From a virus (taxonomy: Duplodnaviria; Heunggongvirae; Uroviricota; Caudoviricetes): a stretch of 17,568 nt of DNA. Position 1 is the stretch's first letter. Each line of letters starts with the position of its first letter. The DNA lies in the IMG/VR virus record IMGVR_UViG_2698536618_000023; one strand, written 5' to 3'. Positions 15,001 to 17,568 of this stretch are shown here, piece after piece. A program made the position numbers.

Positions 15001-17568
15001 TTGAAAACTCCTGCTGTCGGATCAGGTTTAGTGCTGGGGGAGAATACCCCCCCTCCCAAAAGATTATTACGCGGCGTTGTTGCGAGAAGCATCAATACGC
15101 TGGTTAATCCATTCGTCGACTTCACTTTCAATAAAAGCCACGGAGCGGGAACCAATTTTTACAGGTTTAGGGAAGCGCCCCAGGCTGATCAGGCGATAAA
15201 TCCAAGCGCGACCGTAACCAGTACGGCGCATAACATCAGAAAGACGAAGTAAGTTATTTGACATATTCAATCCTCGTAACGTCTATAACCGTCTACAATG
15301 ATGCATAAAAGGAAAACATATTTATAGGTGGGTACTATTTTTAATGGTGGGTACTATTTCAATGGAATAGTGCCCACTATTATTTTAATAATGCTGCCAC
15401 CATTCCAGTATCAATAAGCAAAGAAAACGCACGCTTAACTATGATTTCTCGCCATAAACAAAAGAGTTTTGAGCAAATAGTGCCACCTTTTTTACGAAGG
15501 GTGGGCACTATTTAACTATTTGTTTTTCTTTTCCTTCTTCCAACTTGCTGCAAGCCAGTGGGGCGTAGTATCAGGTTTACAGCCTCGGCCATGTTCTGCC
15601 CCGCTCCCCTGCCTTTCAGGTATTCAACAACATCATTTCTTGTAGGGGCTGTTTGTTGATTATCTGGATCATATGTTGCCCAAAGTTCTCTTATTGCGTC
15701 TTCTACATATTCAAGACCTTCGCTCTTATGACCATAAGTCAGCAATACTGTTTCTTCAGAATTAATCACGCGCGATTCAGCATCAATTATTACTGATTGG
15801 TTAGATGGCTTAATCTCCTTATCCGATATAGAGCGAGGAGGTCTTACATAATCGACCCTCTCATTTCTTACCCATTCAAGTAAAGAATGACGGGTAATAA
15901 TTGTTTCGTCCATGGATATTTTCTTCAAACGATCTGGTATCTCTGTACGGGGGGGGCCGGATGCTCTTTGTACTTCCCACAAAGGATAATATTCAATCCA
16001 CACAGGAGTTAATACACCACGACGAATTGCAGTAACCATTCCATTAGCCAACCCCCATGCCATTTTCCAACGTTCATGTTTATAATCTCTGGCATGTTCA
16101 AGAGTAGGGTAATCATAAGGATCAATTCCGGCCAACAATAAAGCGGCTTGGGTGATAGAAAACTCCTGTACTGTTCGCCAGTGGGATAAGTCAGGAATGT
16201 TTTCCACAATTGGCATATTCTCCCCCTTCAAGCGGTCTAATGTTAAGGCCGATCCAGTTCGGTTTGCATCAGCCTTTTTAGTCGCTCAAAGTCTACTACT
16301 GTATACTCAACCAGTCATCCACATTTTCCAAACTTGCCATGTACCACATTCCCGCCCTGTTCCAGTGAGTCCATATAGTCGGCGTACCACTGGAGCATCT
16401 CCTGCCGTCCGTCCAGGTATTGCGCGTGATTGTATGTGCCACGGATCGAGTTTTTATCGACGTGCGCCAGCTGCGTTTCTATCCACGCGGAGTTATAACC
16501 CTGCTCATGCAAAATCGTACTCATGGTATGCCGGAACCCATGACCAGTAACGCGCCCTGCATAGCCAATACGACGAATAAGCACGTTCATAGCCATTTCA
16601 CTCATCGGCTTACTGTGCTGTATTCGACCAGGGAAAATAAACGGATACTGCCCCGTCATGTGTTTTAACTGTTCCAGAATAGCGATCGCCTGTTCTGAAA
16701 GTGGCACGCAATGAGGACGGCGCATTTTCATTCGTTCTTTCGGCACTTCCCACAGACGATTATCAAAATCAATCTCCTGCCACTCTGCCTGCCGTAATTC
16801 ACCTGGGCGGAGTCCTGTAAGAATCAACAATCGCATACCCAGCTTGACGATCTGGCTTCCGGTGTACGTATTAAAAACGCGGAAAAACTCCGGTAGCTCA
16901 TCAACTTTCAGATACGCGTAATGCTCTTTCTTGTGTGGTGCAAATGCGCTTGCCAGATCAGGAGCGGGGTTATATTCAGCGCGTCCGGTAATTATTGCGT
17001 ACCGGAACACTTCGCCACATCGCTGTCGAACCTTACGCAATTTTTCAGTTGCGCCACGGTCATTAAGACGAGAGAGAACCGCGAGCAATTCCATCGGTTT
17101 TATTTCTGCTATCGGTTTGCTGCCGATATACGGGAATACGTCCTTCTCAAACGTATCAATCATCTCTGCGGCATATGATTGTGACCATCTGTCCAGGCGT
17201 TTTTCATACCACTCACGGGCGATCGCCTCAAAGGTGTTACCGCATTTGTTCGCCTGTTCTCGCTTTTGGGCCTTTCTGACCTCACTCGGATTAACTCCAC
17301 CAGCGATAAGCCTTTTGGCTTCATCCCTTGCCGTCCTGGCATCAGAAAGGGACACCTCAGGATAAACACCCAGCGACAACATTTTGGGCTTGCCTGCAAA
17401 CCTGTATCGCAATCGCCAGCCCTTCGAACCGTTCGGCTCAATGAGTAACGAAAGCCCGTTGCCGTCATTGAGTGTATAGGCTTTCTCTTTTGGCTTCGCG
17501 CGACGGATAGCAAGGTCTGAAAGCAACATGTGTATAGCCCCCAAAAAACGATTTTGTCCTATACGCAT

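Follow-up and report, generated by a model that had tools for sequence, protein, structure and literature searches.

A putative operator array upstream of alpA and its candidate cognate regulator in a Gram-negative phage-satellite island

Results

Repeats between hyp239 and alpA

The region upstream of alpA was analyzed in a 17,568-nt stretch of viral DNA (Caudoviricetes; IMG/VR record IMGVR_UViG_2698536618_000023), referred to as the window, with respect to a repeat array and to hyp239, the gene proposed to encode its cognate regulator. On the minus strand, the integrase gene int (17568..16315; Arm-DNA-bind_3, Phage_int_M and Phage_integrase domains) is followed by hyp239, an open reading frame (ORF) of 234 aa (15512..16216), by alpA (15067..15264; 65 aa; Phage_AlpA with E 2.5e-20, HTH_17 with E 7.8e-8), the presumed regulated gene, and by a Rha-like gene (15001..14282). 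The gap of 247 bp from the stop codon of hyp239 (15512-15514) to the ATG of alpA (15264) carries, spread throughout, five strong copies and a weak sixth copy of the 16-bp quasi-palindrome AATrGTGGGyACTATT, each copy having the form AATrGTG-SS-yACTATT. All six lie within 189 bp (15324-15512).

At the level of the 13-mer, two exact direct copies of GGTGGGTACTATT were present at 15327-15339 and 15346-15358 (both plus). The further copies were AGTGGGCACTATT with one mismatch at 15366-15378 (minus), GGTGGGCACTATT at 15500-15512 (plus) and GGTGG-CACTATT at 15476-15487 (minus), which was overlooked by ungapped search because of a 1-nt deletion. The spacers within the inverted pairs comprised 7 bp (15359-15365) and 12 bp (15488-15499). 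Thus, the earlier note on this DNA, which had reported five copies, i.e., two direct copies and two inverted pairs with these spacers, in the regulatory region directly upstream of alpA, was confirmed in every position.

In the 16-bp frame, the proximal site 1 (15324..15339, plus; ATAGGTGGGTACTATT; 21.7 bits) reads AATAGTACCCACCTAT in the sense of alpA and continues straight into a −10-like TATAAA; 11 related loci have its equivalent at position −75 relative to the alpA start codon. Site 2 (15343..15358, plus; AATGGTGGGTACTATT; 22.3 bits; equivalent at −94 in related loci) repeats site 1 directly, with 19 bp between their starts, and serves at the same time as the left arm of an inverted pair with site 3 (15366..15381, minus; AATAGTGGGCACTATT; 20.0 bits), the most symmetric copy (AATAGTG-CC-CACTATT). 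The distal inverted pair is formed by site 4 (15476..15491, minus; AAAAGGTGGCACTATT; 13.5 bits), with its deletion in the G run, and site 5 (15497..15512, plus; AAGGGTGGGCACTATT; 21.0 bits), the last base of which is the first base of the hyp239 stop codon. The weak sixth site (15389..15404, minus; AATGGTGGCAGCATTA; 8.4 bits) is tentative; in related loci, a site occurs between −118 and −140.

The clustering is unlikely to be accidental. The 9-mer core GGYACTATT occurred five times in the 17.6-kb window, always inside the array (0.24 expected), and none of 200 shuffles reached five. A looser test with the 13-mer (up to two mismatches) was less decisive, with four occurrences observed, 0.76 expected and 2 of 200 shuffles reaching four. 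In a position-weight scan of the whole window, sites of at least 20 bits were confined to the array. A strict GTG-NN-CAC palindrome model was rejected since it fitted only some of the sites; an asymmetric core, GGTGGGCA, with AAT/ATT flanks in enterics described the data better. Inspection by eye revealed no match to integration host factor (IHF) sites. The outcome of a helical phasing analysis of distal versus proximal sites shifted with the choice of reference sites, and no phasing is claimed.

A lone match to the operator matrix, ATAGGTGAGTATCATT (15.7 bits), was observed at 6091-6106, some 15 bp in front of the sulphur-transport gene. Since the matrix was partly trained on this same window, a chance match is probable.

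Conservation in related islands

Searching with full-length hyp239 homologues recovered 22 loci from E. coli, Salmonella, Yersinia, Enterobacter, Serratia, Erwinia, Dickeya, Arsenophonus, Sodalis, Pseudomonas and Spongiibacteraceae. In all 22, alpA (frameshifted in L021) followed about 170-260 bp after the hyp239 homologue, and the gap contained repeated sites in both orientations. The presence of the motif in related islands, on which the earlier note had let its proposal depend, was thereby borne out, since the motif was kept along with the ORF-array-alpA unit in Enterobacterales, Pseudomonas and other Gammaproteobacteria.

The 15 non-redundant loci of the main group shared the core GGTGGGCA/TGCCCACC. 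CCCACC was present in 13 of these 15 (25 copies in total), and GGTGGG reached a 16-fold higher density in the gaps (25 copies within 3.2 kb) than in the flanks (56 within 116 kb). In Enterobacterales, the site positions were fixed relative to the alpA ATG, at −75, −94 and −117 to −128, with the distal inverted pair at −193 and −216, overlapping or directly following the stop codon of the upstream gene. The distal pair of the window is located at −227 and −248.

Co-variation of motif and cassette

Three loci (L009, L021 and L022) carried a different repeat, of the AAACC-N5-CTGTTT type, at the same positions, i.e., after the stop codon and beside the −10 box. In the hyp239 homologues of these loci, the C-domain helix GAGxNMAEAVNLILRP is replaced by G(A/C)TVNLA(K/R)(A/S)VDEVLRP; the contrasting segments are NMAEAVNLILRP in hyp239 and NLAKAVDEVLRP in the DEVL type of the AAACC-N5-CTGTTT loci. 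Their N-domains and AlpA proteins are ordinary, and only one substitution, outside the helix, is unique to AlpA of L009.

Conversely, the motif was retained where only the C-domain was shared. Protein P0076 has a different N-terminus and a coiled coil, and GGTGGGCACCCACC together with two copies of GGGCACCCACCCTA lies within 210 bp before the AlpA-like gene of its locus. In Pseudomonas, AlpA is about 45% identical to the enteric protein and differs in its recognition helix; GGTGCCCACC nevertheless remains the motif there, alongside a conserved hyp239 C-domain.

Pairwise comparisons of islands revealed exchanges between int and alpA. Window and L003 are 95.6% identical in int and 96.8% in alpA and the DNA downstream, while 15247-16289 corresponds to unrelated DNA in L003, which has neither hyp239 nor the array. 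This stretch (15247..16289, minus) delimits the exchangeable cassette, comprising the regulator gene, the operator array, the promoter and leader of alpA and the first alpA codons, flanked by conserved int and alpA. AlpA of L004 and that of L023 are 97% identical, and DNA homology restarts only 21 nt before the ATG; for L007 and L024, AlpA identity is 88%.

Besides the hyp239 type, three other types of int-alpA stretch were observed in E. coli islands. The first (L023, 2329-2455) has a gene for a 265-aa protein and four TACCCTNAGGGTA palindromes; the last ~60 residues of this protein weakly resemble the hyp239 C-domain (hhalign E 0.0026). The second (L024, 2357-2430) has a DUF6387 gene with the different repeats TCCGCTTTGAA/TTCAAAGCGGA and TTATCCGCTAT. 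The third, EcCIMP1-like type (L026, 2198-2260, and L003) has no large ORF and two copies of CGCTGACAAAGCGSAAT. Each of these types may represent an alternative regulator-operator pair.

The hyp239 protein family

Hyp239 consists of a conserved N-domain (residues ~1-75 and 105-120), a hypervariable middle, a conserved three-helix C-domain (~165-220) and the basic tail GRRKRK. It had no match in Pfam, PHROGs, NCBIfam or the PDB sequences; when 10 distant members of the family were scanned with Pfam, no hit passed the threshold, and a Foldseek search of hyp239 against viral structures returned nothing significant. Homologues fell into 57 clusters in a word-indexed search, and an exhaustive profile search yielded 1,164 representatives at E <= 1e-3, many sharing the C-terminal ~80 residues only. 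Counted as representative clusters at 50% identity, the family thus exceeds 1,000 members and has no Pfam model.

In the AlphaFold models, each end of the protein forms a small helical domain predicted with confidence, and the middle is disordered; pLDDT was 78 for full-length hyp239 and 80 for its C-domain. Both conserved domains appear helix-turn-helix (HTH)-like in these models, which is compatible with DNA binding; the best structural matches of the N-domain were winged helices of the MerR, Xis and TerS types.

The middle part (15740-16000, residues ~75-160) was hypervariable even in comparison with an 80%-identical relative (L002; SCU-171 island), the flanking domains being nearly identical. 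Judged from this pattern, diversifying selection or intragenic recombination is suggested. In distant family members, N-terminal modules are swapped. By analogy with Stl from the pathogenicity islands of Staphylococcus aureus (SaPIs), it may be speculated that the variable middle and the replaced N-termini serve as the sensor part.

The junction between int and hyp239 (16002-16300) was 96% conserved in islands with an otherwise different hyp239 (hits H19-H27). Directly upstream of the hyp239 start codon, a sigma-70-like match, TTAACA-18-GAGAAT (9/12), was noted at 16217-16246 (minus).

Predicted alpA promoter, distal hairpin and leader

From the sequence, the hexamer TATAAA (15321..15326, minus) was predicted as the −10 box of alpA. 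A box of the form TATNNN (TATAAA, TATATT or TATTTT) directly followed the last site in most of the approximately one dozen Enterobacterales loci examined. By sequence inspection, no good −35 box was recognizable at the predicted promoter or in related loci, and the TATAAA box at alpA was not called by a generic promoter scan. Relative to the predicted transcriptional start, site 1 would span −25 to −10, site 2 −44 to −29, site 3 −67 to −52, the weak sixth site −90 to −75 and the distal pair −198 to −162.

As RNA, the distal pair (sites 5 and 4; 15476..15512, minus) forms a hairpin directly after hyp239 (−17.4 kcal/mol; z = −4.3), and hairpins occur at the equivalent place in L005, L009 and L017. 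A clear U-run after the equivalent hairpin was present in L009 and L023 only; the tail in the window, UAUUUGCUC, is weak. A terminator consensus scan of the minus strand did not call the distal pair; sites 2 and 3 were flagged on the plus strand. The distal hairpin may double as a terminator or insulator between the int-hyp239 unit and alpA.

In the alpA leader (15272-15296), the block ATAGACGTTACGAGG beside the Shine-Dalgarno sequence was conserved with alpA even across exchanges of the upstream cassette. The window has a direct repeat there, TAGACGGTTA and TAGACGTTA (15278-15296). In relatives, CTCGTAA...TTACGAG could pair and thereby sequester the ribosome-binding site; the folding energy of such a leader hairpin was no better than that of shuffled controls. 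A search for complementarity between the C4-type RNAs of the island and the alpA leader found none.

Island context

By its gene content, the whole element appears to be a Gram-negative phage-inducible chromosomal island (PICI) or P4-like satellite: int, alpA and a D5-type primase gene (11609..9786, minus) are co-directional, a Bro/antirepressor zone with C4-type RNAs is present and phage structural genes are absent. The layout matches the four-zone organization of Gram-negative PICIs (PMC10111431), and the island resembles EcCIMP1 (PMC11773190). Further genes include AntA/Ash remnants, SSB, ProQ/FinO, two PerC genes and a Q antiterminator. Near-identical DNA was found in Shiga-toxigenic and bovine E. 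coli beside tRNA-Gly, in the interval bounded by actS/xdh on one side and by the remnant of the ETT2 secretion system on the other.

The family of C4 antisense RNAs (RF01695), which are immunity RNAs of the P1/P4 type, was matched over its full length at two places, 12531-12619 and 13012-13099 (minus; 74 and 70 bits). In the upstream copy, the loop shows complementarity to ACTGTAAGG (13230-13238) and ACTGTAAGGA (12965-12974), an arrangement like that of P4 seqA/seqC. Therefore, the 507-aa 'AntA/Ash' ORF at 12766-14289 cannot be a single real gene; RefSeq annotation over this interval consists of fragments and pseudogenes.

Directly downstream of the primase stop (9786), TGTTCACC is clustered at 9544-9772 in both orientations, with nine exact copies (9552-9772) and three with one mismatch. 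This corresponds to the type I iteron of the phage P4 ori/crr, which is bound by the alpha protein; the cluster is therefore probably the replication origin of the island. An analogous role of the alpA array as P4-type iterons was rejected, as its motif differs from TGTTCACC and it lies about 3.7 kb from the primase start (11609).

The distal window genes (1613-3244, 4133-4531, 4838-6076, 6710-7174 and 8099-8401, all minus) comprise a second, 543-aa tyrosine-recombinase-like gene, the phage Q antiterminator, a sulphur-transport family membrane protein and the two PerC-family regulators. In EcCIMP1, PerC-type regulators have been tied to control of the locus of enterocyte effacement (LEE) (PMC11773190).

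Discussion

A probable regulator-operator cassette controlling alpA

For Gram-negative PICIs it has been published that AlpA is required for induction, that it activates its own promoter and that this promoter is switched on by the helper phage, whereas no repressor or inducer is known (PMC6092414, PMC11773190). The published role of AlpA as activator agrees with the earlier note. On balance, the repeats described here are probably the operator set of the adjacent upstream gene hyp239, and gene and operators would form an exchangeable cassette that controls alpA transcription. The motif copies are clustered in the regulatory gap, and the putative DNA-binding protein encoded next to them appears from the comparisons to co-vary with them. 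Since hyp239 is the sole gene that co-varies with the motif, it is likely the regulator, and the label 'cargo ORF' given to it in the earlier note has to be revised. The comparative data point to its C-terminal domain as the part that binds the motif. Hyp239 may thus keep Gram-negative phage-satellite islands silent until a helper phage arrives. As to the sign of regulation, repression is somewhat favored over activation because a protein at site 1 would clash with RNA polymerase.

The following mechanism is proposed. In the quiescent island, hyp239 would be made co-directionally with int. Its three-helix C-domain and basic tail would read the GGTGGGCA core, probably as one dimer per 16-bp quasi-palindrome. 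Occupation of sites 1-3 would cover about −10 to −67 of the predicted alpA promoter. Binding at site 1 would keep RNA polymerase off, since this site falls within the spacer and reaches the −10 box. The distal pair, located some 150 bp upstream, would stabilize the complex, possibly via a DNA loop, and as an RNA hairpin it may halt read-through from int and hyp239 into alpA. Repression would be lifted by a helper-phage signal directed at the variable region of hyp239 (N-terminal or middle), after which AlpA would boost its own production in the way published for other PICIs.

Several points weigh against this interpretation. The changed motif of L009, L021 and L022 probably arose only once in evolution, and the swap comparisons link the array to the cassette as a whole, including promoter and leader, and not to hyp239 alone. 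The Pseudomonas loci lack a clear juxtaposition of site and −10 box. A predicted promoter without a −35 box is as compatible with dependence on an activator as with repression, and the centers of two sites, near −36 and −60, are also typical of activators. In addition, EcCICFT073 and EcCIMP1 respond to helper phages without a hyp239 homologue; hence, hyp239 is not the general mechanism.

Alternative explanations

Among the alternatives, the one that fares best retains hyp239 as the binding protein and reverses its effect: hyp239 would be an activator or co-activator, of the class-II or MerR-like kind, of a weak alpA promoter and would be active only with a helper-phage signal. This is rather unlikely. 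The TATAAA box without a recognizable −35, here and in related loci, the classical activator positions of sites 2 and 3 and the MerR-, Xis- and TerS-type matches of the N-domain are in its favor. On the other hand, site 1 fills the spacer and overlaps the edge of the −10 box, an arrangement that normally occludes RNA polymerase, and five to six sites with a distal pair resemble the architecture of repressor loops. Moreover, hyp239 belongs to the int-side unit, which is expected to be expressed in the quiescent island, and positive feedback is already supplied by AlpA (PMC6092414).

That a helper-phage or host protein recognizes the repeats, hyp239 being unrelated cargo hitch-hiking with the promoter region, is improbable. 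Helper phages do induce alpA promoters via an unidentified factor (PMC6092414), and the swaps cannot formally separate hyp239 from linked DNA. Yet the motif co-varies with residues of the C-terminal helix of hyp239 in otherwise conserved proteins, persists where the C-domain alone is retained and is conserved from E. coli to Pseudomonas despite differing phages and host factors. The earlier note had left the choice between a helper-phage and an island-encoded regulator and had suggested looking for the motif in helper-phage genomes; the comparative data favor the island-encoded option, and for the helper-phage option no tracking of the motif was seen. Neither the array DNA nor the hyp239 protein had a match in 50,697 phage genomes, a search in which viral contigs were not scanned for the bare 13-16-mer (tens of chance matches were estimated). 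Of the specific binders put forward earlier, Rha-like and AntA-like proteins were rejected together with Bro, since their genes differ between motif-bearing loci or are absent from some of them.

AlpA, the third of these candidates, is a very improbable owner of the sites. Xis- and AlpA-type proteins commonly bind repeated sites, and the array lies directly upstream of alpA. In EcCICFT073 and EcCIMP1, AlpA activates its own promoter (PMC6092414, PMC11773190). However, AlpA proteins of 94%, 97% and 88% identity are accompanied by wholly different or absent arrays, whereas AlpA proteins of ~45% identity with different recognition helices share the same GGTGGGCA motif, and in L009 the motif changed with AlpA all but unaltered. 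Autoregulatory sites of AlpA were rejected on these grounds.

It is equally hard to credit that the inverted repeats act purely at the nucleic-acid level, as terminator or attenuator hairpins without a dedicated protein: the stable hairpin right after the stop codon in the window, L005, L009 and L017, the U-runs in L009 and L023 and the plus-strand terminator call at sites 2 and 3 would fit, but sites 1 and 2 are direct repeats that form no hairpin, the promoter-proximal positions carry the same motif and change in step with the distal pair, the U-tract of the window is weak, and hairpins do not require a primary sequence conserved from E. coli to Pseudomonas.

Arm-type sites of the integrase were also considered and rejected. 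The array is located about 2 kb or more inside the island, past int and hyp239; L003 has a 95.6% identical int and no array, and L016 has the module without an adjacent int.

Significance and a broader proposal

Activation of alpA by helper phages in the phage-inducible islands of Gram-negative bacteria has been known since 2018. For this control, the locus provides a candidate that is concrete and open to testing, comprising an operator motif, a partner protein in which a recognition helix is putatively assigned, and specificity variants that occur naturally; the exchangeable int-alpA cassette suggests a route by which islands could change helper specificity. The island carries two PerC-family genes and EcCIMP1 also has PerC, i.e., such islands carry virulence regulators; according to published work, they can carry defence systems as well. 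Therefore, the switch that controls their induction matters for gene transfer in pathogenic E. coli.

Extending the hyp239-operator interpretation, it may tentatively be proposed, though this is less likely than not, that a large class of Gram-negative PICI/P4-like satellites has its missing master repressor in the hyp239 family. A GGTGGGCA-reading C-domain would be fused to interchangeable N-terminal and middle sensors, which helper-phage proteins would bind, thereby derepressing alpA. On this view, the gap between int and alpA would act as a helper-specificity (immunity) cassette open to exchange, and the DUF6387 and 265-aa L023 proteins would be analogous alternative regulators.

Comparison with known systems

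Operator arrays in regulator-operator cassettes of mobile elements are already well known as a kind of element; the hyp239 family and its role in Gram-negative satellites appear undescribed in the literature searched. The SaPI repressor Stl with its stl-str operators is similar in that an island-encoded DNA-binding protein (a putative one here) is combined with multiple operator repeats at an excision/replication promoter, in that the non-DNA-binding part is variable and fast-evolving (in Stl the target of helper-phage inducers) and in that the modular cassette differs between islands. Unlike stl, hyp239 is co-directional with its target rather than divergent, and the target is the activator gene alpA. 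The two proteins have no sequence or clear structural relationship, and repression with derepression by a helper is only proposed for hyp239.

Lambdoid and 186-type immunity regions (CI, OR/OL, looping) likewise have several 16-17-bp quasi-palindromes over a lytic promoter (a predicted promoter here) and a second cluster at a distance, and genomes that are otherwise homologous swap repressor and operators jointly, as an 'immunity' cassette. They differ from the present locus, where the clusters are only ~120-150 bp apart and hyp239 has no recognizable Cro/CI HTH or LexA-like cleavage domain and no evidence of SOS control.

Phage P4, with the AlpA homologue Vis and P_LL/attP, represents the P4-like satellites to which the window is akin by its TGTTCACC iterons and C4/CI-like RNAs. 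P4 also has repeated protein-binding sites near an AlpA-family gene. There, the binder is Vis itself and the sites are beside attP; in the window, the motif does not follow AlpA, and its distance from the island att end exceeds 2 kb.

The island layout is the same in EcCICFT073 and EcCIMP1, which share int, alpA, the Bro/antirepressor zone with immunity RNAs and the primase (EcCIMP1 also PerC) and in which P_alpA is a helper-responsive, positively autoregulated control point. No operator or repressor is defined in the published descriptions consulted. Islands of the EcCIMP1 type (L026 and L003; at proA-tRNA-Thr or tRNA-Gly) differ in having neither hyp239 nor the GGTGGGYAC array, their int-alpA gap containing the CGCTGACAAAGCGSAAT pair instead.

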